From a virus: 48,897 nt of DNA. The translations under genes and the position numbers were made by a program. Within the stretch, counting starts at the first letter, position 1, and each line of letters starts with the position of its first letter. The stretch is taken from positions 1 to 48,897 of IMG/VR virus record IMGVR_UViG_3300011430_000004; one strand, 5' to 3'. The notes under the pieces are model-generated. The model did not search any database. It saw only the letters and a list, made by a program, of their open reading frames with translations, and had not been told where the DNA came from. Shown here in pieces: positions 1 through 40,997 of this stretch.

Positions 1-123
1 CCGGTGCTTACTCCTGTAGAAAGGAGTTTGTCTCAAGATTGGGTAGCCCCTCTTTCAAGAAGGTTTGTTTATATGGCGTGTGTTGGGCCTTATATGGTTT
101 ACGAGGAGAGTTTGCCCCGATGA
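1..123. repeat. Terminal direct repeat, left copy (exact duplicate of 48775..48897)
   Basis: Compared base by base: ccggtgcttactcctgtag...gagtttgccccgatga is at both window ends. The repeat runs through coding sequence, which fits a circular-assembly overlap or terminal redundancy. Confidence 0.95.
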
Positions 124-881: not shown

Positions 882-1019
882 ATGAAAAAAGGGTGCAATT
901 GCGGTAGGTGCTTTAAGGTGTATTTCGATTATTATTGGATGGAGTATTATGCTTTTGAGATTGAAAAAGCGACAGCCGCGTTAAGGAGGGTACTTGAAAA
1001 CTATTCTATTCGACGTTGA
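882..1019 (+). CDS. small Cys-containing ORF (45 aa), tentative
   Basis: ATG 882 to TGA 1017..1019, MKKGCNCGRCFKV... Overlaps the next gene start by 26 nt. Below the ORF-track cutoff. Confidence 0.25.
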   Translation: MKKGCNCGRCFKVYFDYYWMEYYAFEIEKATAALRRVLENYSIRR

Positions 1020-1569
1020 CGGTGTGTTGGCAGATTTCGTGTATGCCTTCACAAGAGAATGTGGCATAGAGCCTTACAGCACGCCGCTACTACAAGTATG
1101 GGATTTTGGGGACACGATCTCAAAGAGTGTTCAGAGCAAAGCTTGGGAAAAGATTATCAAGACGCCTATGTGGTGGGCGGACTACGTACCTACCCTAGCT
1201 TCTTTACAAGAGTTTGGCAGAATCGACGATCTGACTCTTGATAACCAAGTGGTGTTTTGCACTAACCGGACGGGCACTCCGAGCCCACAACGGCAAACGG
1301 AAGCTTGGTTAATTATGCAGGGGAATATACTAAACCCCCATGTAATCGTGTCCAAGCGCAAGGGTGACGTGGCGAAAGCAATCGACGCGGACTATGCGAT
1401 TGACGATACGGCGGAGAATGCGGCTTGCGTGCATTGGATTGCGGACAGCAAGCCTTGCAAGTCGTATATCCTTGATCGTCCGTACAATCGAACAAAATTC
1501 TTACCTACCAAGGTGAGACGTGTGTTTTCTGTGGCAGAGTTTCTTGAAGACGTTAAGACAGGAGTATAA
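994..1569 (+). CDS. HAD-superfamily phosphatase, NT5C-like 5'(3')-deoxyribonucleotidase
   Basis: TTG start 4 nt after SD AAGGAGG. HAD motif I is ILFDVDGVLADF (DxDxV), motif II is CTNRT, and the Lys and DD motifs are SKRKG and IDDTAEN. Confidence 0.8.
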   Translation: MKTILFDVDGVLADFVYAFTRECGIEPYSTPLLQVWDFGDTISKSVQSKAWEKIIKTPMWWADYVPTLASLQEFGRIDDLTLDNQVVFCTNRTGTPSPQRQTEAWLIMQGNILNPHVIVSKRKGDVAKAIDADYAIDDTAENAACVHWIADSKPCKSYILDRPYNRTKFLPTKVRRVFSVAEFLEDVKTGV

Positions 1570-7958: not shown

Positions 7959-8816
7959 TTATCCACCGCCATAAATTATTATACCCACGGCTGTTGTCCC
8001 TGCTCCTGCAATCCGACACCACACTTTGTCTCCACTGGAAGTTGGATAGGCTATCGCCGGACCATAGTGGCCCAACACTTCAGAGGAGCCCTCATCCGAT
8101 TGAGCAAACCCCATACTTGTAACTGCGCCTGAGTTAGGCCCAACTCCAATCTCAATCAAGTTGGTTGTTGCACCCACGTTTGTATTTCCTAGTAGATCCA
8201 TTCCGACTTGCCAGAGCTTGTGATTTTGTGCCGTGGTTCCTATTTCAGTCCATGCCCCAAAGGCTCCGCTCGCTGGAGTGACTGAAGTGCCGCGTGAACT
8301 AGCAGCGTTCACACCGTAAGCAACCCAACTGTTTTCTACCACGCCAACATATCGAGACCTAGATTCGGTGAAGACAACCACACCCACGCTATCATTGTTG
8401 ACGGTGGTTTGTGATCTAGCTTTAATGGCATTGCCGGCGGGGATGTTTAATCCGGGGAAGTAAAACGCTTTACCACCACCCGCCGCTGTGCTTGCTCCAC
8501 CAATAGCATTGATAGCCGCTTGCCCTGCATTAATATCAGGAATGACAATTGTGTCTCCCGCGCCATAGGCTATATCAACCAACAAACCTGTATCGGTAGC
8601 GGCGACGACTACCGTGTGCACAATCACTAACAAACCGAACACGTCATAAGCAGGAGTCATTAAAGTAGCATAAGCACCTTTGGTATGTGTGCCTGCTGCA
8701 TTTGTGACCGTGGTTCCGTTTCTTGCTGTAGCGGTAAGGTTAGTTTCCGCCGATCCCGCAGCTTGCAACACTGCAAGTTGGGTGGCTATCAGCTTTCCTT
8801 TTGCGTAGCCGTGCAT
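7959..8816 (-). CDS. putative distal tail fibre / receptor-binding protein (285 aa)
   Basis: Gly/Ala/Thr-rich beta-type sequence with an apparent internal two-fold repeat. It directly follows the fibre-like genes. Confidence 0.4.
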   Translation of the reverse strand: MHGYAKGKLIATQLAVLQAAGSAETNLTATARNGTTVTNAAGTHTKGAYATLMTPAYDVFGLLVIVHTVVVAATDTGLLVDIAYGAGDTIVIPDINAGQAAINAIGGASTAAGGGKAFYFPGLNIPAGNAIKARSQTTVNNDSVGVVVFTESRSRYVGVVENSWVAYGVNAASSRGTSVTPASGAFGAWTEIGTTAQNHKLWQVGMDLLGNTNVGATTNLIEIGVGPNSGAVTSMGFAQSDEGSSEVLGHYGPAIAYPTSSGDKVWCRIAGAGTTAVGIIIYGGG

Positions 8817-9146
8817 TTACGCAATCTCCGATCTGTAAAGCGACCAACTGACATTGCCAAGTAGATCGTACACACTCACGATGGTATCCTCGTTCAAGGT
8901 TGCGCCTGCTAAGCATTCAAAGGTATCATTGCCGGGTAATGGCAAATCGTAGTAATTGTAATGTTTGTTATCAATTGCGGCCCCGGCTATTCGCACTGCC
9001 ACCCGTATCGTCGTGGGAGTGCCGCTTCTGTTGCAGGCAATTAGTTTGCTCACCACTGCTTGTGTGTTGGAGGGCACCGTGTATAAAGTTTCCAATGTCG
9101 CTGCTGCTGAATCAAGTTGTACTGGGTCAGGATAAGTTGTTGCCAT
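8817..9146 (-). CDS. hypothetical small structural protein (109 aa)
   Basis: Abuts both neighbours with no gap, within the fibre cluster. Confidence 0.5.
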   Translation of the reverse strand: MATTYPDPVQLDSAAATLETLYTVPSNTQAVVSKLIACNRSGTPTTIRVAVRIAGAAIDNKHYNYYDLPLPGNDTFECLAGATLNEDTIVSVYDLLGNVSWSLYRSEIA

Positions 9147-10073
9147 TTATGCTCCTAGTAAAAGGAAGGGATGAAAAGTTGCTCCACCGCTTCCACCGCC
9201 ATCCGTGAGCCGTTCCGCTAATTGGTCCAGCGCCTCTTGCACGTCACCGGGGTCCGCTCCTCCGTCCCAATCGGTTACTTCTGCTGGCGTAAAGGTTACA
9301 TCCTCTGCATCTACTAAGCCGCCAGCACCGACCGTTGTCCAAGACAAACCACCCGATCCATCTGTTACAAGAATATCATCCGCGTCACCGTCATTATTCG
9401 GTAACGTGTAAGTGACATTACCGGCTAGGGCCGGGACAAGGAATTCAATATAGTTTGTGCCGGACCCCGAGGGCTCCATCATTCGAAGCCTGCTGCCCGT
9501 TGCACCGCCACCGATGATGATGTTTCCGCCTTCATCAGCGATGAATATGTCACCCTTCGTAGCGTTTGACGTGCTTCGCAGCGTCAAATCGTCACCGGAC
9601 CCCGTGCCACCTTTCACAATCTGTCCGCCTGATCGACCGACTAATAGGAGGTACTGCGCGTGATCGTCGTCGGTCAGTCCGCCGATAGAGCCGTGGTCTA
9701 GCGTGGACTGCGCCCGCCAACTTGCGTCTGTTCCGTCGCTACCAAGGTAAGTGCCCGCACCGCCTATGGTCAGTTCGTCCCACTTTGGCGTGCTGTTGCC
9801 GTAGATTAAACTTCCTCGTGAAACAGCATCCGCAACTGTGTCCGAATGCTCCGAAGCATTCAATAAGGTGTGAGGAACAACGAACCCGCTTGTTGCATTG
9901 GTGCAGAATTCATCACCGTCTTCATCCTTAAAACAGAATACACTCTCGCCGGACCCATTGTCTTTGACGTAAAAGCGAAGGGTGTTAGGGCGAACCCGTG
10001 AAGGGGCGGTGACTTCTGCCGCTTCAACGTAGCTCATGAGCGTAATTCGCTCTAGTCCAAGATGAATTGCCAT
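9147..10073 (-). CDS. tail fibre-like protein (308 aa)
   Basis: Segment LTDDDHAQYLLLVGRSGGQIVKGGTGSGDDLTLRSTSNATKGDIFI resembles a motif recalled from many phage fibre proteins. Gly-rich beta repeats. Confidence 0.5.
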   Translation of the reverse strand: MAIHLGLERITLMSYVEAAEVTAPSRVRPNTLRFYVKDNGSGESVFCFKDEDGDEFCTNATSGFVVPHTLLNASEHSDTVADAVSRGSLIYGNSTPKWDELTIGGAGTYLGSDGTDASWRAQSTLDHGSIGGLTDDDHAQYLLLVGRSGGQIVKGGTGSGDDLTLRSTSNATKGDIFIADEGGNIIIGGGATGSRLRMMEPSGSGTNYIEFLVPALAGNVTYTLPNNDGDADDILVTDGSGGLSWTTVGAGGLVDAEDVTFTPAEVTDWDGGADPGDVQEALDQLAERLTDGGGSGGATFHPFLLLGA

Positions 10074-16541: not shown

Positions 16542-16859
16542 TTAGGAAATGGGGTCCGAAGCAACGAGCACATGATCGTTAGGGGTCCAGTTGGTTGCCG
16601 TGATCGTTTGTGTGATCGGCACAGTGACAGCCGCTACAAGCTTGATGGTGGCATTTGCTGTCCAAAACGAAGCCCGACCATCTTTCAAAGTGAGAGGGCT
16701 GGTAAGGGAGTTGCCCCCGTCACGGTCTGCAAAAAGAGTGACAGCGCCGTCTGAAGTGTTGGTCACTGTGAGAGTGCCCGCGTCGTCGTCAATAGGAGCC
16801 ATGCCGCGCCGTAGCGAAAGCACTTGAACGTCATACCTATAAAGTCCACTAATCGCCAT
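16542..16859 (-). CDS. small Thr-rich structural protein (105 aa)
   Basis: Clean ORF immediately downstream of the sugar module. Very Thr-rich (TLTVTNTSDGAVT...VTVPITQTITATNWT). Confidence 0.5.
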   Translation of the reverse strand: MAISGLYRYDVQVLSLRRGMAPIDDDAGTLTVTNTSDGAVTLFADRDGGNSLTSPLTLKDGRASFWTANATIKLVAAVTVPITQTITATNWTPNDHVLVASDPIS

Positions 16860-16920
16860 TTTCTAAATTCTCCTTTTAATAATTAGGGGGTGGGACAGGG
16901 CTTAGGCGGCATGATACCGC

Positions 16921-17655
16921 CTAGAAGAGGGAGCCCTGTCTTATGAGAGGTCGTTTGTCTAAAACCCGAATAACATCCCGTGCTCTAAAATCATTCGGAA
17001 GCTCTTTGTAAAGATGCAAAGCCAATTCGTATTGCTCGGGGGTGTTGATACTTAAATCTAACTCCGGTCGGCGGATCTCTGCGGGGGCCTGTATGGTCCG
17101 CACATGCTGATTCTCAAAAGCCCATTGATGGGGGTGCTCTCTATAATAAGCGTCGCGTCCAAACCTACCCAATATTTTATCCAACCACTGAAGAAAACGA
17201 ACATCGTAAACCTCAGCGCCTAATCCACCCGGATAGCCGTTGCCTAACACGTTTTGGTCAAGATTCGTGGTTAGCCAATTCCACGGCGCAGGGTTTTCGT
17301 TGTAATGAGTCACTATCCGGTCAATTTCGTCAGGATCAATAAAAGTGTTGTCCCCCGGAATGCGGATAATTATGTCCCCGTCCAAGATATCAGCGGCCAA
17401 GCAGTAGCGGTGAACAAGATCGTCCGCATTGCCTTTGTAGTCTAAAACCTCGATACCAAGATCCCGCGCAGCATCTTTCATAATGACGCCGTTCGCTTCG
17501 TGCGGAATCGCCATCATGATTTCGGTGTACGACTTTGCTTGCCTTACTCGATTCAATACATGCCAGATTTGAGGCTTACCTTGAATCATCAACCCGTTCT
17601 TACCAGGCATCCGCGAATTCCCCATCCGCGCCTGCACCACACATACTGTTTTCAT
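16921..17655 (-). CDS. SpsF/NeuA/PseF-type cytidylyltransferase (CMP-nonulosonic acid synthetase candidate)
   Basis: N-terminal VVQARMGNSRMPGKN and IRIPGDNTFIDPDEIDRIV match the CTP_transf_3 family pattern. Overlaps the upstream NeuB-like gene by 4 nt. Confidence 0.8.
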   Translation of the reverse strand: MKTVCVVQARMGNSRMPGKNGLMIQGKPQIWHVLNRVRQAKSYTEIMMAIPHEANGVIMKDAARDLGIEVLDYKGNADDLVHRYCLAADILDGDIIIRIPGDNTFIDPDEIDRIVTHYNENPAPWNWLTTNLDQNVLGNGYPGGLGAEVYDVRFLQWLDKILGRFGRDAYYREHPHQWAFENQHVRTIQAPAEIRRPELDLSINTPEQYELALHLYKELPNDFRARDVIRVLDKRPLIRQGSLF

Positions 17656-18500
17656 GGCCGGAGCCTCTTTATGCTAGATTGTTCACAATCTAGCACCCGA
17701 ATTTCACCAGAGCCCCGTGCTTTCTCTAGGTTGCGGATCTCGCGAACAAGAAGCTTGAAGCCTGCGGGCTCTACTGATGCAGCTTGGTCCGAGCCGAGCA
17801 TCGCCCGGTCAAGGGTGATATGACGCTCGACAATCGTTGCCCCCATTGCGACAGCGCAAAGCGTTGTCCATAAGCCCGGTTCGTGACCGGAATATCCAAC
17901 CATGCAATCTAAAAACTCTTCTCTCAAGGTATAAATACGATTCAGGTTCAAGTCTTCCGGCTTTGCGGGATACGTCGAAGTGCAGACCAATAACCCGACT
18001 AAAGGAGCCCTCGGATAAAGGATATTCATTGCACACCAAATATCCTTTTTAGAGCACATTCCCGTGCTCATGATAACGGGCTTTCTAAATCTCGCGATCT
18101 CACTAACCAAGTCCAAATTTGTCACCGAAGCAGACGCGATCTTGAACAAAGGCATTCCCATCATATGAAGGGTCCGCGCCGCATTCACGTCCCACGGCGA
18201 AGCGAACATTGTAATGTCCGCAGTCTCCGCGTACTCGAACAACTCCGCGTATTGCTTCGAACTGAATTCGATCTTCTCGCGATACGCCAGATAGGTCATA
18301 CGGAAACCCCACGGGGTATCTCGTTCCACGTCCCATAGATGGGGTGGAAGACTCTCCGCAGGGGTCCGCTTTTGAAATTTGACGGCATCACAGCCCGCAT
18401 CTTTTGCAGCGTCAATAAGCCGCTTTGCGATATCCATATCGCCATTGTGGTTGATGCCTATCTCTGCAATTACAAACGTGTGATTAGGAAAGCAAAACAT
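17652..18500 (-). CDS. NeuB-family nonulosonic acid synthase (sialic/pseudaminic/legionaminic acid synthase-like), lacking the SAF domain
   Basis: FVIAEIGINHNGDMDIAKRLIDAAKDAGCDAVKFQKR plus GYSGHE and ERHITLD motifs. Start set to ATG 18498..18500, preceded by SD GAGGGGG. At 282 aa it ends after the barrel. Confidence 0.85.
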   Translation of the reverse strand: MFCFPNHTFVIAEIGINHNGDMDIAKRLIDAAKDAGCDAVKFQKRTPAESLPPHLWDVERDTPWGFRMTYLAYREKIEFSSKQYAELFEYAETADITMFASPWDVNAARTLHMMGMPLFKIASASVTNLDLVSEIARFRKPVIMSTGMCSKKDIWCAMNILYPRAPLVGLLVCTSTYPAKPEDLNLNRIYTLREEFLDCMVGYSGHEPGLWTTLCAVAMGATIVERHITLDRAMLGSDQAASVEPAGFKLLVREIRNLEKARGSGEIRVLDCEQSSIKRLRP

Positions 18501-20205
18501 TGTTGCCCCCCTCTTCGTGCCAAACCCCGTCCCACATTCTAGTAACAAGGGAATCACCGTAAAACTTGATACTCTTCAACAACCCCTGCTCATGTGCGAT
18601 AGACACGATATCCAAAACCTGATTGGCAAAATCGATCATGGAAGGGGTGGTCTGAATCGTCTCCCCCTTAACTTCCACTTCCGTCCAGTTAAACGTTATA
18701 CTCTTACCGGCTATCCCCTTAGCATGAGTTTGAGCCCGGTCCTTAGCCATAAGGTCTAAGCCGAACATATGAAGCTCATCGAAGCCAAGATTAAAAGCGA
18801 CCGACATTCCATTGATTGCAACTGAACCGCCCGCATTGATAACGGTGCATGTCGTATATCCGTTATCTGCACGAAGGCCCCGAATCTTGGACGACTCGCG
18901 ACTATCGAAGATATAGCAAGAATACTTACTAAGCTTCTCAAGTATGGAAGGACGTGTAACCGACGCGGCTAGGAAGGTCGTGCCGTCTTGCATGTTTACA
19001 AAAGAAGGCTCCTGTTCTTCAGAGCAATCAAGCGTTAAAACGTAATCCGGAATAATTCCACGATCCAAGCACCAAGGGTACATCCGTGCGATTGCAATAA
19101 GCGGATAACCACACCCCTTCAACCATTTAATATTATCGATCTGCTCATCAACCGAAGGACCACCCGCGAGAATCATAGCCGGTCCTTTTTGTGTGCCCGT
19201 AATCTCGGATATGTCCGGCACTTTCAAAGCCAGATTCGCTTTCATGTTGGCAAATAAAAGCTTTGGTGAAAACTTACACACGCCCCTGAATCGGGGAGAA
19301 CGTCGCGGTATGCCGTCCGGCTTAAACAAGTGGTCCATGATAAACTCCGACCACTCGGTAGGCTTTGTCAAGGGACGCAACCGAAACTCCGCCCCGCGAT
19401 ACTGCCACAAAGATAAAATCTCTTCGTCGCTGTAATACTCTTCAAACCCTAATCGGTCCATTACGTATTCTAGCGAACGAGCACAAAACTGATAGGTATG
19501 AGCGACCTGGAAATAACTGTTGACGTTGTTTCTGAAAAATCCCGGTGTATAAACGTACAGAAACCCTTCCGGGGTTAGAAGCTTACCTAACTCCTCAACT
19601 GTATGCAGGTCCGTAAGATGCTCGATAGCATCGTGAAGTATTATAAGGTCTGCTTTAATGCCCCGGTCTTTCAACTCCTGCACAGAGGTAACTATGTTCA
19701 ACCCCTTGCCCCGCGCAAACTCCACCGCTTCAAGGTCCCACTCGACCCCGTAAGCCTCTGCGCCCGCATTCTCAAAGGCTCGTACAAACCCCCCAACGTA
19801 ACAACCGAAATCGATAACGACCTTCGGGGACGGAATATCCATTTCATCAAGCCATTCCTGCATCCCCTCGCCTATTTTAACCTTGCCCTGAAATTCATCC
19901 TCGACGGTTTGGGCTCCGCCCCTTTGCGCGTAAATGTAACGGTACTCGTTATTATAAAACTGGCGATAAGACTCTTTCGTCAACCGGGGATTGGCCCGCA
20001 TCAACGCACAAGCCTTGCAAAGCACCATACGGTGTGTCATCCCCGCACGGTCAGTTTCCGCAATTACAAAATCATTAGCGCTGTCATCCCCACAAATACA
20101 GTCGGTGGGCTCCCTCACATACTCCCCACTGACAAGCTTTCTTTCGTATTCTCTCTTATGAATAGGGGCGGCAAGCTGCCGCCCCATTTTGCTGTCTACT
20201 CTCAT
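18484..20205 (-). CDS. Fusion protein: class I SAM methyltransferase + DUF115/MptE-like (Maf, motility-accessory-factor type glycosyltransferase) domain
   Basis: N-terminal half has VIDFGCYVGGFVRAFENAG ... ADLIILHDAIEHL. C-terminal half has AMILAGGPSVDEQIDNI ... GIIPDYVLTLD ... INAGGSVAINGMSVAFNLGFDELHMFGLD, the DUF115/Maf pattern. Confidence 0.75.
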   Translation of the reverse strand: MRVDSKMGRQLAAPIHKREYERKLVSGEYVREPTDCICGDDSANDFVIAETDRAGMTHRMVLCKACALMRANPRLTKESYRQFYNNEYRYIYAQRGGAQTVEDEFQGKVKIGEGMQEWLDEMDIPSPKVVIDFGCYVGGFVRAFENAGAEAYGVEWDLEAVEFARGKGLNIVTSVQELKDRGIKADLIILHDAIEHLTDLHTVEELGKLLTPEGFLYVYTPGFFRNNVNSYFQVAHTYQFCARSLEYVMDRLGFEEYYSDEEILSLWQYRGAEFRLRPLTKPTEWSEFIMDHLFKPDGIPRRSPRFRGVCKFSPKLLFANMKANLALKVPDISEITGTQKGPAMILAGGPSVDEQIDNIKWLKGCGYPLIAIARMYPWCLDRGIIPDYVLTLDCSEEQEPSFVNMQDGTTFLAASVTRPSILEKLSKYSCYIFDSRESSKIRGLRADNGYTTCTVINAGGSVAINGMSVAFNLGFDELHMFGLDLMAKDRAQTHAKGIAGKSITFNWTEVEVKGETIQTTPSMIDFANQVLDIVSIAHEQGLLKSIKFYGDSLVTRMWDGVWHEEGGNNVLLS

Positions 20206-20235: not shown

Positions 20236-21069
20236 CTAGTCGGTGACGATAGCCGCCGCCGTTGGATCAAGCTTATACTGAAAAAACAAATAAGCTTTTC
20301 CGGTTTCAGCCTTTGTGCCGGTGAAAGAAGCCGTCAACGCCACTGCCCGCGCAAAGCTCAACACAGTTGCGGTAGGGACAAAATAACGTTTGCGGCTAAA
20401 CCAACCGCCCGCTGTTTGGATCGACATGGTATCCCAATTTGCCAACTGAACCCCGGCAAACTGAGTTGCGAAAATCTTGCCCGTGCTGGAATGAACAAGA
20501 ATCTGCTTGTATCCCGTCGCACTCAAGTTCATGTTTCTGACAAGCGCATCACTATCACCGGCCACACCGATGTTGTACATGTTGTTGCCCGTAGCAGCGC
20601 CGAGAAATGTTCCGGTAACTTTGAGAAACACGTCATCGATAATCATGCCCTTACGTGCAGTGAAGCCCGTACTTCGGAGCGTGGTGCTTGAAGCAACGTC
20701 GTTAATCGGGGTAACGAGGGTAAAACTATCTCGTTCAGGATCAACGTCAACGCGATGCTGTGAAGCTTTTACGGCCTTCAAGAAATAGGCACGTCCACTC
20801 AAGGTAAGCACCGAAATGTCAACGGTAGAACAACTAAGGTTCGTATAGAAACTCAACTGTCCGTCCGTCATAGTGCGCGACACAAAGCCCGCCCCGCCTT
20901 GACCTAAACTTTGGGTCAACAGCGTACCGGAAGCATTATAAATTGCTTGCCGAGTAGCGGAACCTGCGGTATAAACCTGAAACTGCCCACTGTCATCATT
21001 GACAGGTTTCTTTTTGCGAGTATCGATCAACTGAAGAAACCATTCTCGCTTGTTGTTAATGTTAGCCAT
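20236..21069 (-). CDS. virion structural protein candidate (277 aa)
   Basis: First gene after the capsid-operon hairpin and just upstream of the sugar module. No family recognised. Confidence 0.45.
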   Translation of the reverse strand: MANINNKREWFLQLIDTRKKKPVNDDSGQFQVYTAGSATRQAIYNASGTLLTQSLGQGGAGFVSRTMTDGQLSFYTNLSCSTVDISVLTLSGRAYFLKAVKASQHRVDVDPERDSFTLVTPINDVASSTTLRSTGFTARKGMIIDDVFLKVTGTFLGAATGNNMYNIGVAGDSDALVRNMNLSATGYKQILVHSSTGKIFATQFAGVQLANWDTMSIQTAGGWFSRKRYFVPTATVLSFARAVALTASFTGTKAETGKAYLFFQYKLDPTAAAIVTD

Positions 21070-21126
21070 CTGACTTATTTTCCTTTTCGCGCCCTTCTAC
21101 CCAATGAGACAGAGCCGAATTATTCA

Positions 21127-21146
21127 GGGGGGCCGAAGGCCCCCCC
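21127..21146 (-). terminator. Strong GC hairpin downstream of the capsid genes (terminator/processing candidate)
   Basis: ggggggcc (21127..21134) pairs with ggcccccc (21139..21146) across a 4-nt loop. On the minus-strand RNA this reads GGGGGGCC-UUCG-GGCCCCCC followed by UGAAUAAUU. It lies in the 21070..21153 gap. Confidence 0.5.
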
Positions 21147-21153
21147 TACTTGA

Positions 21154-21495
21154 CTAGAGTTTTGCAGTTCCCCAAACGAAGCCATAAATAACCCCGCCTG
21201 TATGCCCCGAAATGTCCATATCGGTTCCATCCGCAATTGTCAGGACGTTTCCCGAAGCAGTGACCACGGCACCAAGAGCGCCGTTGGAATCACCGCCGAG
21301 AATTGCACCCGTGCTATCGCTGATCTGAATGACCCAACCATGAATGTCCTTCAACTGTGGAAAGGTCAATGTCATCGACGTGTCATTTGCCGGTACTGCT
21401 TTGAAAGGAATCACCGGAAGCATCGAGCCCACCACTTCAAGTGGAAGGGCCTTGCCGCCACTAACCCCTGTAGGAACAACCGCCGTAAGAGCCAT
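21154..21495 (-). CDS. small head-associated protein (113 aa), possible decoration protein
   Basis: Immediately downstream of the major capsid gene. Beta-rich. Function is from position only. Confidence 0.45.
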   Translation of the reverse strand: MALTAVVPTGVSGGKALPLEVVGSMLPVIPFKAVPANDTSMTLTFPQLKDIHGWVIQISDSTGAILGGDSNGALGAVVTASGNVLTIADGTDMDISGHTGGVIYGFVWGTAKL

Positions 21496-21520: not shown

Positions 21521-22582
21521 CTATTGGTCTGCAACAGCGGAGGCAAACACATGGACAATACCGTTGTCTTCCGGAGTGGATCGGTCAAAAACGAGCTTTT
21601 GAATTCCACGAATTTCGTGAATTTCGTAAGTCCGGTCATGCTGGACATCGCTTTCTTCTTCTCCAAACTTCGAGCGTTGACCCCAACACACCGCAGCGGC
21701 TTGCGCCCCCAAAAGCATGTTGTGCGAAACGTTGATGCTACTCGCACCCGCGCTTGCTTCAATCAAAAGGCGATCATACTCGTACACAAGAACACCGTCC
21801 CAAGCACCTTTGAAGCGGCTACCGCTGAACAAAGGCGACTCGCTGTTAGCCTGGGGGGGAATGTTCAAGTGAGCATTTCTCCACGAAGCATCGAAGCGGG
21901 TCAAATCACGAACCGAGTAGGTATGACCTTGGAAGGAAAACCATTCCTCGTAGTGCTTTCCGTTCTTCACTCGCATCGGACGAATCTTAGCAAGTGCCAC
22001 AACGGGGATAATAGCTTTACGCTTGGCAACTTCGATCATGCCGGTTGTCAACATATCGTTGGTTGAATCGACATTAGCCATCGCCGTCGCATGGGTGGCA
22101 TTCCAGTTGCTATCAAGTACGCCGTACAGGTAACGACCACGAACACGCCCCGAGGAAGTGTCGGACAACGCGATAGTAATATCGTCGTCCAGGTCAACCC
22201 GGCCCTCATCCTGAAGGGCTTCCTTCGCCTGTTCCAACACGTCAAATTTGACGCGCTTTTGAGACATAGGAATGTTTTCGATCTTCACTAGCCGACGGTA
22301 ATTGTCGATAGTGATTCTTTGACTGAAAAAGGACACGGTGCCTTCATTACCGATGCCCTTTGCGTTGCCGTCAACGCGTCCGCCAACCAATCGTCCTCGA
22401 ATACCGACGGTGATAGCATCGCCGTCCGACTTGGTAAGGTCTTCCTTAACTTGAATAGGCATATCAGAGCCCGTGCCCATGAAATGCTTCCACGCAAGCT
22501 GGCCGATATACTCAGAGAAGATAGACTCTTCCCATTGTTCGACGGTTAGCCCGTGGCCTGTTAGAACTTCAATGTAACTCAC
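21521..22582 (-). CDS. major capsid protein (N4-gp56-like family)
   Basis: DLTKSDGDAITVGIRGRLVGGRVDGNAKGIGNEGTVSFFSQRITIDNYRRLVK matches the conserved N-terminal pattern recalled for N4-gp56-type capsid proteins. It follows the scaffold gene. Confidence 0.8.
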   Translation of the reverse strand: MSYIEVLTGHGLTVEQWEESIFSEYIGQLAWKHFMGTGSDMPIQVKEDLTKSDGDAITVGIRGRLVGGRVDGNAKGIGNEGTVSFFSQRITIDNYRRLVKIENIPMSQKRVKFDVLEQAKEALQDEGRVDLDDDITIALSDTSSGRVRGRYLYGVLDSNWNATHATAMANVDSTNDMLTTGMIEVAKRKAIIPVVALAKIRPMRVKNGKHYEEWFSFQGHTYSVRDLTRFDASWRNAHLNIPPQANSESPLFSGSRFKGAWDGVLVYEYDRLLIEASAGASSINVSHNMLLGAQAAAVCWGQRSKFGEEESDVQHDRTYEIHEIRGIQKLVFDRSTPEDNGIVHVFASAVADQ

Positions 22583-23798: not shown

Positions 23799-24395
23799 CT
23801 ATGTTAAAAACGATGCCCACTCTTTTGAAAAGAGCTTGAGCGACACCGGCTTGATCCAATCGAAATGACCCATATTTGCAAAGTAGCGCCCGACAACCCG
23901 AGAATGGAGTTTCGTCGGACCAACAAGCCCTTGCCGGCCATAAGTAGACTGACTAACAACCTTGTCCGCGTCTGACCAATAAACCAACACGCTATCAAAC
24001 TGGCCCGAGTATTTTGACCAATCAAACTTTTCATCCATCGTAGTCGCAAGCAGAATAATCCGCTTGAAATGCATCCCCGCTTCAAGCGCAGCTTGAACAA
24101 GGGTGCCCGCATAAGAATGCGCGACGATAGAAAGTGATTCGTCTTTCCCGGTGACGCCTTCAATAAACAGTTCGAAGGATCGGAGATTCTCAACCACGGA
24201 TTTGTTGATTGTCCGGCGATACCACGGCAACCAAGTGAACACGCCTACGGCATACTTCCAGAACAACCCGGACCATTGCCAGCTATACGCCGCGAAAGGC
24301 TGTTTTTGGTCGTCCCAAATTGCCTCAAGACGCGACGGCCAATTACGCTCCTCAGAGCCGCCCGGAATCGTCTCGATACCGTAAAGCAGAATCAC
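23799..24395 (-). CDS. alpha/beta-fold serine hydrolase (esterase/lipase-like), 198 aa
   Basis: Nucleophile elbow IVAHSYAGT (G/A-H-S-x-G type), with later SDADKVV and MGHFDW as Asp/His candidates. Start set to GTG 24393..24395, which overlaps (GTGA) the stop of the upstream micro-ORF. The longer ORF-track N-terminus is Cys/Arg-rich and implausible. Confidence 0.6.
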   Translation of the reverse strand: MILLYGIETIPGGSEERNWPSRLEAIWDDQKQPFAAYSWQWSGLFWKYAVGVFTWLPWYRRTINKSVVENLRSFELFIEGVTGKDESLSIVAHSYAGTLVQAALEAGMHFKRIILLATTMDEKFDWSKYSGQFDSVLVYWSDADKVVSQSTYGRQGLVGPTKLHSRVVGRYFANMGHFDWIKPVSLKLFSKEWASFLT

Positions 24396-24505
24396 CCTAT
24401 CCACGATAAAAACCTCGACCAAAGCTTCGACGCTACAGCGGCCACCGCAGGATAAAGGGCCGCTAACAAAATGCCGACAGCGACACTGAAAATAATTGTC
24501 ATCAT
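24392..24505 (-). CDS. single-TM micro-protein (37 aa), tentative
   Basis: MMTIIFSVAVGILLAALYPAVAAVASKLWSRFLSWIG. Its ATG is 2 nt after the upstream stop. Below the ORF-track cutoff. Confidence 0.35.
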   Translation of the reverse strand: MMTIIFSVAVGILLAALYPAVAAVASKLWSRFLSWIG

Positions 24506-24507
24506 GG

Positions 24508-24693
24508 TTAACCCCTTGTCCAAAAAAGATGCCCGCACACGATCCCGGCGAAAAACGGCACAACCGGATAGCGATTGAAGAAACCAATAACTTCCGAAAT
24601 CGTATCACCCGGCCTGCTATTCACCACGGCATAAATATCATAAGCGGCAAGCAGCGCACTAAGTCCGAACAGAATCCAAACCGATTTGTTCAT
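24508..24693 (-). CDS. two-TM small membrane protein (61 aa)
   Basis: Hydrophobic helices VWILFGLSALLAAYDIYAVV and VVPFFAGIVCGHLFW. Start/stop overlap with the upstream gene. Confidence 0.55.
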   Translation of the reverse strand: MNKSVWILFGLSALLAAYDIYAVVNSRPGDTISEVIGFFNRYPVVPFFAGIVCGHLFWTRG

Positions 24694-25448: not shown

Positions 25449-25643
25449 TTACAAATCGCGTATCTGCTCCGCCTTAGAAGGAATACACGCGCCAAACAAA
25501 ACTTCGTCGGTCTTCGGGTCAAGCTCTAAAGCAGCAACCTTAGTCCGCCCGTACTCCACACACGAAGCCGCGTCGTTAAAAGGCTTCCGCTCAACTTCTA
25601 AAACCCCAAGCGACATCCAGACAATTAAAGCAATAACAATCAT
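25449..25643 (-). CDS. signal-anchored small protein (64 aa)
   Basis: N-terminal helix MIVIALIVWMSLGVL, then a soluble part with two Cys. Overlaps the portal stop (ATGA). Confidence 0.5.
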   Translation of the reverse strand: MIVIALIVWMSLGVLEVERKPFNDAASCVEYGRTKVAALELDPKTDEVLFGACIPSKAEQIRDL

Positions 25644-27766
25644 TCTTCGGACTCCTCGTTTTTAGTTTTTTCAGGGGCAGCGGCCTTGATAACTTCCTTC
25701 TGGATATCCATCCGGCCTTTTTCCAATGCAAGCTGGCCCTTCTGCAAATCAACTTGGCCCTTCATCTGCGCCACTTGACCCTTAATCTTTTCGTTCTCGC
25801 CCTTCTGTCTTTCTACCTCGACCTGCGATTGATCTTGCGATTCAGGAACCTGCTTCTTTATTAGCTCTTTCTCGATCTCCGTCTTACTCTTAAGCTCCTG
25901 GGTCGTTTCCGGTGCATTTTCTCGCACCCACTGCGCGACCTGCGGAGCCCCCATCTTGTCGTAATAGAAAGCCCGCTCCATCGGGGGTAATTGATCGATT
26001 GTCGCGTTGATCGAAATCTTAGGCTCCGTCGGAGGCGGCTTACCCTGCTCCTCGATCTCCTTCGCAAACTCGTTCTTGTCCCGAAGGTCGCTCATGAGAA
26101 TCATCTTTTTCATCCAAAACGGCCCAAGCTGCTGAAGCTGTGGAACATACTGCAACAACAACGCCCACTGCTCCTGCTGGAGTGTTTCGGTGTCCGCAAA
26201 ATCGGACGCAACAACGTCATATTGCGCGGACTTAATCTTTTGCAGCAAAGGGACCGTGAGATTTACAACCCTCGACTTCTCTTCACTGTCCGTAATCAAC
26301 AAAGTCTTTTCTTTGGTAAAATAATTCTGCACCCGCTCAAGCACTACTCGCCCGGTGATCTTTCGTGTGCGACGAAGGTTTGAAAAGAGCCGCGCTACGG
26401 GCTTGTTCGACTCCGAAAACTTGCGCTTAAGCCCTGCGGCTGAACGGATCTCTTGGGTGTTCTGCGCGATACGAGGATCGACGCCAGTAATCCGATAATA
26501 GTCTTCTTTCGAAGCCCCGTGCATGGCAAACTGTGATTGTGCCAACTCAAGGTTATTGCGTAGAAGAATTTTTTCTTGAGCTAAAGCCCCATCTTCAACA
26601 GTCGCAACTCCGTCCGGCTTATGGATCTCTTCTTGGTATAGATCCTTATCGGTAATAGCCCCACGCTCCGCGATAGTCTGATTCGAATTCAACAAGTGTA
26701 AGGCTTTCGACTCTCTCTTATTGATAGCGTCCTGCATCGTCAACGCGAGAGAGATAGGGCCATAAGGAGCCCCGTTTTTCTTTCGATACACCCAATAAGG
26801 AATCAGCGAATAATACTTGTTTCGTGTGACCTTGTGCTCAAGCAGAATCCGCGAAGTAAAAACCGCGGTACAAAGCTTTTTCTTGAGGCGTTCAATCTTC
26901 TCGTAATCAACGCCCTCTTCAAGATCCTTGACTAATTCCTTGCCTTCTTCTTCCTGTACGGTCTGACCGTCTATGAGATAGATGCACTCGCGAACCGGCT
27001 TCTTATACTCCATCGTGACAAGACGAATCTTGCGCCGCTCGCAGTCCACATAATTTGCATTCTTAAATGCATCAACCGAGCTAATCTGTGACCCCATGCC
27101 CGTCTGTTCGTCGGACACAAGCCCTTCAAGCTCTGCCTTGGCCTTGGGGTATTTTGCGACTACATCTTCAAGCGGAAACCATTTTGCCGTGGCGACAAAG
27201 TTTGCATCTTCGTTCCAATCGTAGCGCCGTGAATCGGGGTCCGGATAAACCGACAACACGTCTTCGTGCTGAATCTTGATTTCCGGCTGATACAGGTCAT
27301 CGAATTCAACACGAACAGCCAAAACACCGGCCCCGGACGTGAACCCGTCGGCGGCCATATCCGTTTCCTCGAATTCAAGATCGTTCGATTGACGAACGTA
27401 AAGAAAGACATCGGTGAGAGCATCGGCCCCCGCCTTGTCTTCCGCGTCATTACGGCCCCGAAATCCAATCCTGTATTGCTGCTCGGTAAGTTGCCCCATT
27501 AAAGTAGAGACTGTAACCGACACCTGGTTGTTCACCGTAGGGGGCTGTCCACGCTCCTCAAGAATCGCCAACTCTTCTTTGGTCCACTGATTACCCTCGC
27601 AATACTGAAAACAGCGGATCATCTCCTTACGAGCATCGATCCATGAGGGATGGTCCAGCGCATAGGAAAAGTAGCCGTCTAGCTTAACTAGAAGCTCCTC
27701 TTTCTCTTTTGCGCTTTTCGCTTCTTTTTCTGGATCGGCTTCGTAAGGCATTATGCGGTTTTCCAA
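25640..27766 (-). CDS. portal protein (708 aa)
   Basis: Directly downstream of, and overlapping, the large terminase. Size fits. QYCEGNQWTKEE is a portal-like motif, and the C-terminus is charged and coiled. Confidence 0.8.
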   Translation of the reverse strand: MENRIMPYEADPEKEAKSAKEKEELLVKLDGYFSYALDHPSWIDARKEMIRCFQYCEGNQWTKEELAILEERGQPPTVNNQVSVTVSTLMGQLTEQQYRIGFRGRNDAEDKAGADALTDVFLYVRQSNDLEFEETDMAADGFTSGAGVLAVRVEFDDLYQPEIKIQHEDVLSVYPDPDSRRYDWNEDANFVATAKWFPLEDVVAKYPKAKAELEGLVSDEQTGMGSQISSVDAFKNANYVDCERRKIRLVTMEYKKPVRECIYLIDGQTVQEEEGKELVKDLEEGVDYEKIERLKKKLCTAVFTSRILLEHKVTRNKYYSLIPYWVYRKKNGAPYGPISLALTMQDAINKRESKALHLLNSNQTIAERGAITDKDLYQEEIHKPDGVATVEDGALAQEKILLRNNLELAQSQFAMHGASKEDYYRITGVDPRIAQNTQEIRSAAGLKRKFSESNKPVARLFSNLRRTRKITGRVVLERVQNYFTKEKTLLITDSEEKSRVVNLTVPLLQKIKSAQYDVVASDFADTETLQQEQWALLLQYVPQLQQLGPFWMKKMILMSDLRDKNEFAKEIEEQGKPPPTEPKISINATIDQLPPMERAFYYDKMGAPQVAQWVRENAPETTQELKSKTEIEKELIKKQVPESQDQSQVEVERQKGENEKIKGQVAQMKGQVDLQKGQLALEKGRMDIQKEVIKAAAPEKTKNEESEE

Positions 27767-29262
27767 CTAGTCTTAGATTTCTTACCCTTAGTTTGCTTGA
27801 CGCTCTTGTTGAACATTTTCCGGATTAGATCCGGTCCCCACATTTCAGTCTGAATCAAAGAATCTGCTCTATTGGGCGAATCAACACCCCGACGCTTCAT
27901 TTCCTTCTTCGTCTCGATCTTGATTTTTCCGGTCACTTCCTCGTAACGAGGGGCGTTAAGATCCCCGTGAAGCAACGGGTCGTCCGGAATGGACAGGAAC
28001 CCTTTTTCGAAAGACGTTCGTGTTCGCCACCAAAGTTCGTCACGAAGCCGGTAGAACCGGTGAGCATTAAAAGCAGTGTTCGCAACGTTGATCCCGTAAA
28101 CATCAATCTTCGCGGCTTCAAGTCGTTTCCTCAGTCCGCCCTCAATACCCCACCCGACGCCGATAGAATCTAGCAGCAACGCTTTCGGCGCAGGGTCATT
28201 CGCGAGGATCTCGCGAGATGCCCACTCAATCAACGCGTTCGACTCTGAATAGCCCGCCACTTGCAGCGGAGCTACAAGAGGCCCTGTTCTATGTAGGAGA
28301 CAGCTTTCATCTCCCCCCGCGCCAACGTCCAGCGAATATATTGTTGGATCGTCGGACACGACTTCCATCTCACGATCTACGGCATCAATAATCCATTCCC
28401 ACGGAATGACCGTGTTCTCCCCTGAGAGAGGGGGCAAGCCAAGAACTCGAATACGAAAGGTGTTACTTTCTCTTCCGTATTTTTTCTCCAACCGCTCAAC
28501 AGAATCCTTCGTAACTATCTCGGACTCTTCCGCGTTCCACCGATAAGCCATCCAGTTTTCCCGGTCGCGGTTGTGCGTGTCATATGCAAAGCCCTTAGCC
28601 CGCGTCGGATTAAAGAACAGGAGGCAAAGGTTACACATTCGTGTAAGGGTAGACTCAAGGGGACGAAACACGGGGTCCGGAATACCGGACGCTTCATCAC
28701 CGATGATAAGGAGATAATCTTCGTGCAGTCCGGCCAACGTCTCTGCTTGTTCTTCCGCGCTGTTCCTCGTGTTCGCGGTGCGTGTGACGGCGAACCACTG
28801 TTGACCCAACGCTTCATTGAAATAGAACTTATCAGTCTGCCAAGTGAACCAGTCCTTAAGCTTCGAACGTTGATGCCACTTCGCCAACTCCGCCCACAAA
28901 GTAATCTGCAACTGCTTAGCTGACGGCGACGTAACAGCGATCTTCGCGAAAGGAAAACAAGTAAGGAACCAAATTATCACCCACGAAGCGGAAGCACCTT
29001 TGCCAGTCCCAACACCACTCATCACGCTTGTACCAAACTTGCGGTTTAAAATCTGCTCGCGTTCAGTGACAGGGAATCCGTCTATAAGCTTGCCCGTCGC
29101 GTTCCACTTGTAAACCTTAATCTTCGCCCAGACCATTTCGCACAACTCTATGAGGTAGGCTTTCTGCTGTGCGGAAGGGTCAATGCCGAAAACATCCTTA
29201 ACGAACTTAGGAATATCCTTAGCCCAAGTAAGGATTATACTGGCTTGCTCGGACTTAGGCAT
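27751..29262 (-). CDS. terL: terminase large subunit
   Basis: Walker A-like GVGTGKGASASW, Walker B LLIIGDEASGI, and nuclease-domain acidic motifs (SLDVGAGGDES). The position before the portal fits. Confidence 0.9.
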   Translation of the reverse strand: MPKSEQASIILTWAKDIPKFVKDVFGIDPSAQQKAYLIELCEMVWAKIKVYKWNATGKLIDGFPVTEREQILNRKFGTSVMSGVGTGKGASASWVIIWFLTCFPFAKIAVTSPSAKQLQITLWAELAKWHQRSKLKDWFTWQTDKFYFNEALGQQWFAVTRTANTRNSAEEQAETLAGLHEDYLLIIGDEASGIPDPVFRPLESTLTRMCNLCLLFFNPTRAKGFAYDTHNRDRENWMAYRWNAEESEIVTKDSVERLEKKYGRESNTFRIRVLGLPPLSGENTVIPWEWIIDAVDREMEVVSDDPTIYSLDVGAGGDESCLLHRTGPLVAPLQVAGYSESNALIEWASREILANDPAPKALLLDSIGVGWGIEGGLRKRLEAAKIDVYGINVANTAFNAHRFYRLRDELWWRTRTSFEKGFLSIPDDPLLHGDLNAPRYEEVTGKIKIETKKEMKRRGVDSPNRADSLIQTEMWGPDLIRKMFNKSVKQTKGKKSKTSWKTA

Positions 29263-29984: not shown

Positions 29985-30416
29985 TTACTTTTCGAATTTC
30001 GACTCTTCTTCGTGGGCTTCCATGATGATCTTCGTCAGGGTTGCGACATTCGCCGTGCTCTTTCCCTCAAGTAATCGTAGCTGTTGAAAAGAGCGATCCA
30101 TGAGAGCGATTGATTCGATTGGGTTCATCGTCGCGGCTAGATCGTGAAGGCGGTCCTTGGCCCGCACGTTCAGCACTGTTAAATCCCAAATCTCTTTTTC
30201 TTTGATCTGCTGAATTTTCTGTTCCATGCGCGGGTCCGTGTAGGCTTCCCGATTGGCGAGATACTTGTCGATGGTGTGTCCGCTCATCCCGGTTCGCTTC
30301 TCAATCGCGTACTTGCTGTTTCCCATGTCGCGGAGCGCGAACAATTCGGCTTTCTCTTGTCGAGTAAGCTTCTTACCCCTCTTTCTATGCCTTACTACAC
30401 GCGGCGGCTTCATCAT
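29985..30416 (-). CDS. HTH DNA-binding protein, small terminase subunit candidate (143 aa)
   Basis: First gene of the late arm. Basic N-terminus, HTH-like GNSKYAIEKRTGMSGHTIDKYL, and a helical oligomerisation-like C-terminus. Assignment is by position and architecture. Confidence 0.45.
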   Translation of the reverse strand: MMKPPRVVRHRKRGKKLTRQEKAELFALRDMGNSKYAIEKRTGMSGHTIDKYLANREAYTDPRMEQKIQQIKEKEIWDLTVLNVRAKDRLHDLAATMNPIESIALMDRSFQQLRLLEGKSTANVATLTKIIMEAHEEESKFEK

Positions 30417-35485: not shown

Positions 35486-36133
35486 ATGATTGCACTCGGA
35501 TATATAAGGCGCAGCAAAAAGAGCGAAGCTAAGACGGTCTCTCTTGAGGAGCAAGCGCAGCGCATAGCGGACTATTGCGCGTCTAAAGGCTGGACACTCG
35601 CCGAAGTGCTCCGCCATGATGGTATCTCAGGGACAAAGCGGAAACGCTTCGTTGATATCGACGGGGCTCTCTTGCGGTTCGGTGCTGATGCATTGGTCGT
35701 CTATAACCTAGATCGGCTTGCGAGGGATGCAGGGGGTTTGTTGGACGCTCTGAAGTCATATCAATCCAGAGGCATTCAAATCCATGAGTCAAGCAGCGGA
35801 CTGATTGGAGATAAAGCCCTTGACCGGCTTATGGTCGGAGTGCGAGGGGTCATGGATGAGTATTACGCGCTAGTCATAGGCGAGAAGACAAGCGACGCGT
35901 TGCAGGGGTTACGTTGGCAGGGTAAGAGGTACACGTGGTTAGAGCCCTTCGGATATCGTTACGCGGGGGGGCTCATGGTGGCGGACCCTACGGAGCAAGG
36001 CATCATTAGTCAGGCGCGTACCTTGCGCCAGGAGGGGCTTAGTTATCGAGCCGTGGTGAGGAAGCTTAGGGCGGAAGGGTACAAGGGACGGTTGAATCAC
36101 GAAACCGTAAGGCGTTTGTGTTTGCCTGAATAA
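35486..36133 (+). CDS. small serine recombinase (resolvase/invertase family, 215 aa)
   Basis: YIRRSKK (catalytic Ser region), HDGISG, VVYNLDRLARD, and a C-terminal HTH-like GLSYRAVVRKLRAEG. Confidence 0.85.
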   Translation: MIALGYIRRSKKSEAKTVSLEEQAQRIADYCASKGWTLAEVLRHDGISGTKRKRFVDIDGALLRFGADALVVYNLDRLARDAGGLLDALKSYQSRGIQIHESSSGLIGDKALDRLMVGVRGVMDEYYALVIGEKTSDALQGLRWQGKRYTWLEPFGYRYAGGLMVADPTEQGIISQARTLRQEGLSYRAVVRKLRAEGYKGRLNHETVRRLCLPE

Positions 36134-37228: not shown

Positions 37229-37267
37229 CGGATATTTTTCTCCGGTCTGTTGGTATCGGGGGTGCTT

Positions 37268-38337
<1,070 letters not shown>

Positions 38338-38341
<4 letters not shown>

Positions 38342-40806: not shown

Positions 40807-40997
40807 GACTATTAAATTGGTTGGGCTTCGTGATAATGACTAAAGCTCAATTTAAAATGTACTTGGATGAGGCATATTGGGAAGGCCACGATGACGGTTG
40901 GATCGGGGGGAAAGATGAAGGCTACGAAGAAGGCTTCCAAAACGGTCAAGAAACCCAGTCTCAAGAAAATCAGTTTGACGAAGGAACCGCTATCTAA
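40803..40997 (+). CDS. hypothetical acidic protein (64 aa)
   Basis: ATGA overlap with the Toprim gene. Its 3' part overlaps, in another frame, the likely start of the next gene. Confidence 0.45.
   Translation: MRLLNWLGFVIMTKAQFKMYLDEAYWEGHDDGWIGGKDEGYEEGFQNGQETQSQENQFDEGTAI

Follow-up and report, generated by a model that had tools for sequence, protein, structure and literature searches.

The virus record IMGVR_UViG_3300011430_000004 of IMG/VR was analysed over its whole length of 48,897 nucleotides (the window; coordinates without a locus name are positions in it). Between its capsid and adaptor genes lies a module of three minus-strand genes encoding a methyltransferase fused to a Maf-type glycosyltransferase domain (18484..20205), a NeuB-family synthase (17652..18500) and a cytidylyltransferase (16921..17655), which together resemble a pathway for making, activating and transferring an acidic sugar. 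The three overlapping genes lie exactly where a preliminary description of this DNA had placed them, and all the motifs quoted there are present in the translations. Independent gene callers return the same genes on identical contigs, with products of 573, 282 and 244 amino acids (aa), and identical protein is encoded on 13 contigs from soil and other metagenomes, in which other pipelines call the same genes. The stop codon of the fusion gene and the ATG of the synthase gene overlap by 17 nt (18484..18500), and the synthase stop and the cytidylyltransferase start by 4 nt (17652..17655). The three genes have the GC content of their neighbours, overall and at third codon positions, and thus show no compositional trace of recent import; promoter-like sites within the module are below chance expectation. 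The profile hidden Markov model searches that had been proposed as a check on the family assignments returned significant NeuB, CTP_transf_3, methyltransferase and MptE-like matches, all above the Pfam cut-offs.

The C-terminal half of the fusion (18484..19305, minus strand; approximately residues 300–573) is a minimal Maf-type (MAF_flag10/MptE-like) glycosyltransferase domain. Residues 319–488 match the MptE-like family PF01973 in Pfam (E 6.9e-26, 91.5 bits, cut-off 34.6). An AlphaFold2 model of the fusion with a mean predicted local distance difference test (pLDDT) score of 91.3 and a predicted template modelling score of 0.88 matches in Foldseek, as the suggested relationship to Maf would have it, the Maf structure 5MU5 from Magnetospirillum magneticum (E 2.3e-10, probability 1.00, 476 aligned columns). 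The two are also related by sequence (E 1.8e-4), with the GGPS, IPDY and FGLDL motifs of the phage protein aligned (phage/5MU5 pairs GGPS/GSGPS, GIIPDY/GIQPDF and LGFDELHMFGLDL/LGFRELYLFGVDL). Positions 324 and 415 of the M. magneticum protein and a conserved serine of its nucleotide-binding loop are reported to be critical for activity (bioRxiv 10.1101/2020.06.03.131540); the two residues are worded as Asp324 and Glu415 in that preprint, whereas the deposited 5MU5 chain has E and D, respectively. E324 of 5MU5 aligns with D393 of the phage protein, D415 with D484 and the serine of GSGPS with S351, and all three phage residues are invariant in an alignment of 32 family members.

PF01973 takes its name from the archaeal enzyme MptE, and the domain could accordingly be read as a kinase or pyrophosphokinase of that type (HPPK), in which case the module would have another metabolic role, for example in modifying DNA or a cofactor. 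Foldseek does place the MptE structure 8SD5 among the fold matches (E 3.9e-6), but the match to Maf is stronger both by fold and by sequence, for which MptE reaches only E 0.97. The best NCBIfam match of the fusion is the flagellin-modification protein PseD (39.5 bits, far under the cut-off of 670), the gene is co-located with those for NeuB and a CMP-sugar synthetase, and the genome has no DNA-hypermodification or pterin genes; a kinase role is therefore very improbable. Modification of DNA was rejected as a function of the module because the early region holds no hydroxymethylase or related genes.

Bacterial Maf proteins owe their specificity for flagellin either to a helical or TPR domain at the C-terminus or to an accessory factor, GlfM. 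The phage protein shares with PseD/PseE, Maf-1/Maf-2 and 5MU5 the MAF_flag10/PF01973 domain, its motifs and the residues at the catalytic positions, but lacks these specificity parts: its model ends about 75 residues past the catalytic domain, in one beta hairpin and one helix with no helical/TPR domain, and GlfM is not encoded in cis, the neighbours of the fusion gene being those for NeuB and for a protein termed here p277. Neither does the gene occupy a flagellar locus; it lies in the phage head operon, in a 48.8-kb genome without flagellar genes. The loss of the parts that confer flagellin specificity fits a target other than flagellin. Maf enzymes are cytoplasmic and their donors are soluble CMP-sugars, a combination that suits virions, which are assembled in the cytoplasm, and they accept varied donors including N-acetylneuraminic acid (Neu5Ac) and Kdo (3-deoxy-D-manno-octulosonate). 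The phage enzyme is likewise predicted to act in the cytoplasm on a soluble CMP-ulosonic acid, and genes for a NeuB-type synthase and a cytidylyltransferase lie alongside it, as they do in bacteria.

The N-terminal half of the fusion (19321..20205, minus strand; approximately residues 1–295) comprises a Cys4 zinc ribbon and a class I S-adenosylmethionine (SAM) methyltransferase, of which residues 116–255 match Methyltransf_23 in Pfam (E 2.6e-10). In Foldseek, MtmC (4RV9, E 2.9e-12), together with KijD1 and TcaB9 (NDP-sugar C3-methyltransferases), ranks at the top, and phmmer detects KijD1 at E 3.5e-6; the designer PPR protein 6EEN, the top phmmer match of this half, was discarded as spurious, consisting of eight repeat matches of 2.4–4.2 bits each. 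Ten residues (C36, C38, C63, C66, G134, C135, G138, E195, H196 and H236) and with them the GCxxG SAM motif are invariant in the 32-member alignment. Like TcaB9, KijD1 and MtmC, the phage protein thus has an N-terminal Cys4 ribbon, the GCxxG motif and the two active-site histidines, H196 and H236 aligning with H183 and H227 of KijD1. Mapping of the TcaB9 active site (Y76, H181, Y222, E224 and H225) via the KijD1 numbering showed that both histidines are kept, whereas the glutamate and tyrosine beside the second of them are not, E224 being replaced by Ala235 and Y222 falling in a gap. An equation of E195-H196 with E224-H225 of TcaB9 was rejected, as the KijD1 alignment pairs H196 with H181/H183 and A235-H236 with E224-H225. 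The phage protein also differs from TcaB9 and KijD1 in carrying a Maf domain instead of their C-terminal NDP-sugar-binding domain, and it would methylate a CMP-ulosonic acid or a sugar attached to protein rather than a dTDP-4-keto-hexose. It differs equally from 5MU5, in which the N-terminal domain is a degenerate Rossmann domain, whereas the phage protein has at this end a TcaB9-like methyltransferase that appears intact and includes a zinc ribbon. According to the published descriptions, the N-domain of canonical Maf proteins has a degenerate Rossmann fold with methyltransferase-like motifs, which implies that the association of Maf and methyltransferase domains may be old. Action of the methyltransferase half on a sugar would be in keeping with its sugar C-methyltransferase fold, its Cys4 ribbon and the presence of a homologue in a cassette of NeuB, radical SAM, cytidylyltransferase and aminotransferase genes (locus L010, see below).

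The resemblance to TcaB9 allows a different role for the second half of the fusion, which stands where TcaB9 has its C-terminal domain: the MptE-like domain might replace that domain and only bind the CMP-sugar or nucleotide for the methyltransferase, and the methylated CMP-ulosonic acid would then pass to host glycosyltransferases that build lipopolysaccharide, capsule or glycoproteins. Foldseek aligns TcaB9, KijD1 and MtmC over 420–460 columns, past the methyltransferase core into the second half, and the stand-alone methyltransferase of L010 occurs in a sugar cassette without a detectable Maf. However, the root-mean-square deviation of the long alignments is 19–20 Å, so that individual domains match rather than a common architecture, and the invariance of the acidic residues at the Maf catalytic positions and of the GGPS serine speaks for a retained transferase. 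Stand-alone short Maf genes without a methyltransferase occupy the same slot in two relatives (L025 and L060), which indicates that the Maf domain functions alone. We consider it quite unlikely that the module merely supplies a sugar to the host in this way.

An exhaustive profile search of 1.84 billion representatives for relatives of the fusion recovered approximately 30 full-length fusions, besides stand-alone short Maf-domain proteins of 240–330 aa and a very large family of stand-alone methyltransferases of approximately 340 aa that correspond to fusion positions 15–300. These methyltransferases are abundant in cellular contigs, where they are annotated only as class I methyltransferases, and one lies in a glycan gene cluster. 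The two domains are fused in the reverse order in protein P0179, and in P0269 the methyltransferase is fused to a polysaccharide pyruvyl transferase. Since the domains occur both fused and apart, the phage protein is a genuine fusion, built from two modules each of which works separately as well. Homologues of the fusion form approximately 75 clusters at 35–55% identity, many of them on contigs of 44–50 kb.

The second gene of the module (17652..18500, minus strand) encodes a 282-aa phosphoenolpyruvate-condensing ulosonic-acid synthase of the NeuB family (PF03102) that consists of the TIM barrel only. It matches the Pfam profile over positions 1–239 of 241 (E 2.2e-73, 247.1 bits, cut-off 22.1) and, in agreement with the preliminary description, ends after the barrel, no SAF domain being matched in Pfam. 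In an alignment with meningococcal NeuB (1XUU), the residues E25, K53, Q55, K129, Y186, H215, E234, H236 and D247, which we take to be its metal-binding and catalytic residues, are all identical in the phage synthase, and N184 is replaced by Ser, as it is in PseI and in 6NCS. The latter, a SAF-less protein of 290 aa, is the closest solved relative (E 7.6e-41, full length, at modest identity). The synthase falls below the cut-offs of both the NeuB equivalog TIGR03569 (252.8 bits, cut-off 399.65) and the PseI equivalog TIGR03586 (214.1 bits, cut-off 340.25) because the protein stops at the end of the barrel, at position 272 of 329 of the NCBIfam model, and it is therefore not to be named a Neu5Ac or pseudaminic acid synthase. 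In meningococcal NeuB, an arginine of the SAF domain reaches into the neighbouring active site and contacts the N-acetyl group of N-acetylmannosamine (ManNAc). As this arginine is absent from a barrel-only protein, the phage synthase may use an aldose other than ManNAc.

The third gene (16921..17655, minus strand) encodes a 244-aa SpsF-type cytidylyltransferase, a predicted CMP-ulosonic-acid synthetase, that matches CTP_transf_3 (PF02348; E 4.9e-19, 69.4 bits, cut-off 22.6). It aligns over its full length, including the SpsF-type C-terminal half, with the structure 6OEW (E 1.2e-18, at modest identity), and the nucleotide-binding loop motif VVQARMGNSRMPGK is part of this alignment; KdsB structures match the N-terminal half only. 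All NCBIfam equivalog cut-offs are missed, the best match being PRK13368 (71.4 bits against 255, N-terminal half only), and PseF scores 18.1 bits against a cut-off of 205.7. Both 6NCS and 6OEW derive from cellular genes whose substrates are likewise not established, and they share with the phage proteins the barrel-only synthase and the SpsF-type architecture, respectively. The two entries are presumably structural-genomics targets from Leptospira, and a paper on nonulosonic acids in Leptospira gave no answer on the substrate of the SAF-less synthase.

The pathway had been described beforehand as a nonulosonic-acid route. This holds at the level of the NeuB, CMP-synthetase and Maf families, but the class of sugar could not be upheld in view of the missed equivalog cut-offs and the additional genes of relatives. 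Ten related loci (L009, L029, L030, L032, L033, L040, L042, L044, L047 and L054) carry a larger cassette that also includes a class IV aminotransferase and a radical-SAM/SPASM protein. A cellular-looking glycan locus (L010, 6546..11047) combines a SAF-less NeuB, a radical-SAM protein, a cytidylyltransferase, an aminotransferase and a stand-alone methyltransferase, with 41–49% identity to the phage proteins (34% for the methyltransferase). A SAF-less NeuB that lies below both equivalogs, together with the aminotransferase and radical-SAM genes of relatives, points to an uncharacterised ulosonic acid, and the product of the module is best called a CMP-activated ulosonic acid rather than sialic, pseudaminic or legionaminic acid. 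The larger cassette, of which no description was found in the literature, probably makes an uncharacterised amino-ulosonic acid; we infer an aminated derivative for the larger set and a non-aminated or host-aminated ulosonic acid for the three-gene set, both of which would be methylated. The recurrence of SAF-less NeuB, aminotransferase, radical-SAM/SPASM protein, cytidylyltransferase and methyltransferase genes thus suggests an ulosonic-acid pathway, as yet uncharacterised, that is common to phages and bacteria.

Upstream of the fusion gene, between the capsid and adaptor genes, lies the gene for p277 (20236..21069, minus strand), a conserved all-beta protein (AlphaFold2 pLDDT 85) that is the leading candidate for an acceptor or partner of the Maf domain. 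Homologues of p277 form 51 clusters at 34–66% identity, and in the nearest relatives p277 is 60–66% identical, compared with 50–55% for the fusion. Serine and threonine make up 19.9% of its residues, as against 13% in the capsid protein. No PHROG family includes p277. Its fold matches many uncharacterised phage proteins of 130–170 aa in BFVD and, in part, the cement proteins of Helicobacter pylori phage KHP40 (7DOU_4, probability 0.99, target-normalised TM-score 0.55) and of cyanophage Pam1 (7EEL_H, probability 0.93), phages with capsid proteins related to the present one.

Conservation of the locus was assessed in 45 IMG/VR loci of the same podovirus clade, which were retrieved with the major capsid protein (MCP) as probe and scored gene by gene. 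A survey of this kind had been proposed beforehand, and it shows related phages to have the module in the same place: in the closest relatives (L007, L011-13, L017, L022-24, L026 and L052-53) the gene order is MCP, small open reading frame (ORF), p277 homologue, fusion, NeuB and cytidylyltransferase. In distant relatives (L008, L009, L029/30, L032, L040, L042, L047 and L054) the NeuB and cytidylyltransferase genes lie between the terminase and portal genes, while the fusion gene is still found 3′ of the p277 homologue, the truncated L047 excepted. The slot after the p277 homologue is taken by a Maf-only gene in L025. In L050 (47% MCP identity), a different methyltransferase–MptE-like fusion (8550..10004 of that locus) follows the p277 homologue at a distance of two small ORFs, and L060 (6323..8822) carries a 562-aa methyltransferase–Maf fusion and a 273-aa stand-alone Maf in tandem, followed by an SU10-type adaptor gene. 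Counting all variants, the p277 homologue is accompanied by an adjacent or nearby Maf-domain gene in at least 19 lineages with MCP identities of 47–88%. Three lineages are Maf-less: L018, in which a lysozyme gene follows the p277 homologue, L038 and L028. The slot after the p277 homologue in L028 (3306..3998) contains a 230-aa ORF with a DxD-like motif (FLDDDVIP) and faint glycosyltransferase matches (a PHROG family at E 1e-3 and the GT-A mannosyltransferase family Anp1 at 8e-4), which may be a different glycosyltransferase in the same role.

Some of these variants have features of their own. The fusion of L050, found also in L049 and L051, is a 484-aa protein of the Methyltransf_25 type without a match to the zinc-ribbon methyltransferase half. 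No NeuB or cytidylyltransferase gene was found in the 14.9 kb available for this clade, and such phages might draw on a host CMP-sugar such as CMP-Kdo. The tandem Maf genes of L060 recall bacteria that have both Maf-1 and Maf-2, which act on different target sites. A scan of genome contigs with the MCP yielded only two contigs from metagenome-assembled genomes, in bins of Thermodesulfobacteriota and Nitrospira; these are apparently phage fragments swept into the bins, and neither taxon was accepted as the host.

The MCP (353 aa; 21521..22582, minus strand; Phage_capsid_3 E 8.1e-26; phrog_334 major head protein E 4.2e-46) marks a head module 5′ of the glycosylation genes and is itself a possible alternative acceptor. 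Its counterparts in the Pseudanabaena phages Pam1, Pan3 and Pam5 share 26–33% identity with it. It is followed by a 113-aa ORF (p113; 21154..21495, minus strand) without a family match in Pfam or PHROGs, which holds the position of the cement gene in the Pam1 order of MCP, cement and adaptor; neither p113 nor p277 has sequence similarity to the Pam1 cement protein.

On the other side of the module lies p105 (16542..16859, minus strand; 21.9% Ser+Thr), a paralogue of approximately the 77 N-terminal residues of p277 (hhalign probability 89.8%, E 1.8e-6) with which it shares the motif P-(V/I)-x-DD-x-G ... T-x-x-DG-x-x-SF-x-T. Genes with this small beta domain consequently flank the module on both sides, and p105 is a possible second acceptor. 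It is species-specific, however, being absent even from relatives with 88% MCP identity. Both proteins had been put forward as targets in the preliminary description: p277 gains real support from the conserved adjacency of its gene to the Maf gene, which makes it the preferred candidate, whereas p105 fares less well, as a partial paralogue of p277 that is not conserved in relatives.

Two GC-rich hairpins of 9 bp on the minus strand bracket the p277, fusion, NeuB and cytidylyltransferase genes. The first (GGGGGGGCC-UUC-GGCCCCCCU; 21126..21146, -21.6 kcal/mol) lies between p113 and p277 and is a possible attenuator or RNA-stability element. The module had been placed downstream of the capsid gene and its hairpin, which is correct for the capsid gene, but the hairpin is one gene further on, after the 113-aa ORF. 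The second (16903..16923, -15 kcal/mol, z -2.1) spans the cytidylyltransferase stop codon and closes the unit; 5 of 200 shuffled sequences fold equally well. The first hairpin may set a capsid unit with high expression apart from the genes that follow it. Strong GC-rich hairpins are also present within 110 nt 5′ of the p277 homologue in L008, L009, L013, L017, L027, L030, L033, L038 and L039, with raw energies of -17 to -28 kcal/mol and unrelated sequences, so that the structure and not the sequence is kept.

Gene content, Pfam-level families, conserved catalytic residues, fold and synteny are the observations from which we infer the sugar chemistry, what the methyltransferase does, which protein is the acceptor and how the phage benefits. 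On balance, we lean towards the view that the module is a phage-encoded, self-contained system for cytoplasmic O-glycosylation, active late in infection and directed at head proteins of the phage itself. In such a system, the SAF-less NeuB would condense phosphoenolpyruvate with an aldose to a 3-deoxy-2-ulosonic acid (of the nonulosonic KDN/Neu type or related), which the SpsF-type enzyme would convert into a CMP-sugar. The aldose would have to come from the host, as family scans of the window found no sugar enzymes beyond the module, in line with the earlier remark that the preceding pathway steps are missing and a host precursor is needed. The Maf domain would then move the sugar to Ser/Thr of a virion protein, and the fused TcaB9-like methyltransferase would methylate it, before transfer on the CMP-donor or afterwards. 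The favoured acceptor would be p277, with its paralogue p105 and the capsid protein as alternatives, and the phage could benefit, for instance, from a charged coat of glycans with effects on adsorption, stability or recognition. A narrower version, which we put forward only tentatively, is that p277 is coated, throughout a clade of uncultured podoviruses from soil and freshwater, with a methylated acidic ulosonic acid of the phages' own making, a minimal Maf being the transferase.

Several points weigh against this interpretation. The hairpin 5′ of p277 suggests expression below that of the capsid protein, a poor fit with a stoichiometric shell protein. The cement-like fold match of p277 is weak (E >0.02 in the PDB, TM-score of approximately 0.55, one domain) and has no support from sequence, and a comparison of its conserved Ser/Thr columns between Maf-plus and Maf-minus phages gave no clear pattern, with three Maf-minus lineages only. 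As p277 homologues are also present in the Maf-less relatives L018 and L038, the adjacency could reflect inherited gene order rather than a functional link. The genome also lacks the upstream sugar pathway. A further point, the presence of a tyrosine integrase and a serine recombinase, which make lysogeny or lysogenic conversion possible and prophage expression conceivable, would also fit an action of the same three enzymes on a host protein such as flagellin, pilin, an S-layer or another surface protein, late in infection or from the prophage. Superinfection block, altered motility or altered host recognition would be the outcome, and every characterised Maf does act on flagellin. However, both the flagellin-binding C-terminal domain and GlfM are absent, and the position in the head operon, the overlapping codons, the neighbour-like composition and the lack of an own promoter above chance are unlike those of typical conversion 'morons'. 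A host target is also hard to square with an adjacency to a head-module gene that has been kept over such a range of MCP identity, and we regard it as unlikely.

No counterpart of the self-glycosylation system was found among known phages. Neither megablast of 10 kb of the window nor tblastn with the fusion, or with its Maf half alone, gave a match in 50,697 deposited phages. NeuB had three matches in this set, two of them in genuine viral records, neither of which has a cytidylyltransferase, methyltransferase or Maf partner within 15 kb, and PHROGs has no family for any of the three enzymes. Full-text literature searches retrieved no phage-encoded Maf and no ulosonic-acid glycan on a phage particle; the literature linking phages with Maf, NeuB, DUF115, nonulosonic acid or pseudaminic acid comprised only flagellar-glycan-binding phage proteins, prophage capsule-sugar enzymes and giant-virus sialidases. 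These results bear out the earlier statement that no Maf-type glycosylation of a phage particle was known, as far as the literature searched and the deposited genomes go. The mycobacteriophages Che8 and Rita modify their own capsid proteins in the cytoplasm with their own glycosyltransferases, giving a glycan coat (Freeman et al. 2023, as reported in PMC11256854). By that account, Che8 offers a precedent for phage self-glycosylation, although glycosylation has been shown there and is deduced here from the genes. As far as is known, these two phages use conventional glycosyltransferases and host nucleotide-sugars; in mycobacteriophages the modification changes antibody recognition. The present module differs in having a Maf-type transferase, an acidic CMP-ulosonic donor that would be made by phage enzymes, and a fused methyltransferase. 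To our knowledge, self-glycosylation has been shown only in mycobacteriophages.

If the interpretation is correct, the Maf family would gain its first substrate other than flagellin, and the modified head protein would carry the first sialic-acid-like O-glycan on a bacteriophage particle, produced by a compact make-activate-transfer system of three to five genes with a soluble protein target in the cytoplasm. Maf proteins are known only as flagellin-specific enzymes and their mode of acceptor recognition is still unclear; a Maf without a flagellin-binding domain, encoded beside a small beta-rich candidate acceptor, would provide a simple two-protein system in which to study it. A coat of acidic, sialic-acid-like glycans on the head would have consequences for particle stability, adsorption to surfaces or mucus, and immune recognition, and the set of synthase, CMP-synthetase and transferase-methyltransferase could serve protein engineering of the Ser/Thr sialylation type in the bacterial cytoplasm.

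The 123 bases at 1..123 recur exactly at 48775..48897, the two ends of the window, which therefore represents a complete, circularly closed assembly (or a terminally redundant genome) of approximately 48,774 bp. It encodes a large terminase (27751..29262), a P22-type portal (25640..27766), a scaffold-like protein, a holin, a lysozyme, a family A DNA polymerase and a helicase. A serine resolvase (35486..36133), the tyrosine integrase (37250..38341) and a small DNA-invertase-like ORF (29985..30416) suggest a temperate lifestyle; no tRNA gene or attachment site was identified in the window. A UDG-superfamily protein (40867..41397) adjoins the DNA polymerase in the early region, and the ORF at 994..1569 has a weak match to NT5C-like 5′-nucleotidases. 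Between the scaffold and holin genes lies a 269-aa ORF without a family match (23799..24608, minus strand), the start codon of which is uncertain because gene calls on the identical contig L001 give a product of 201 aa.

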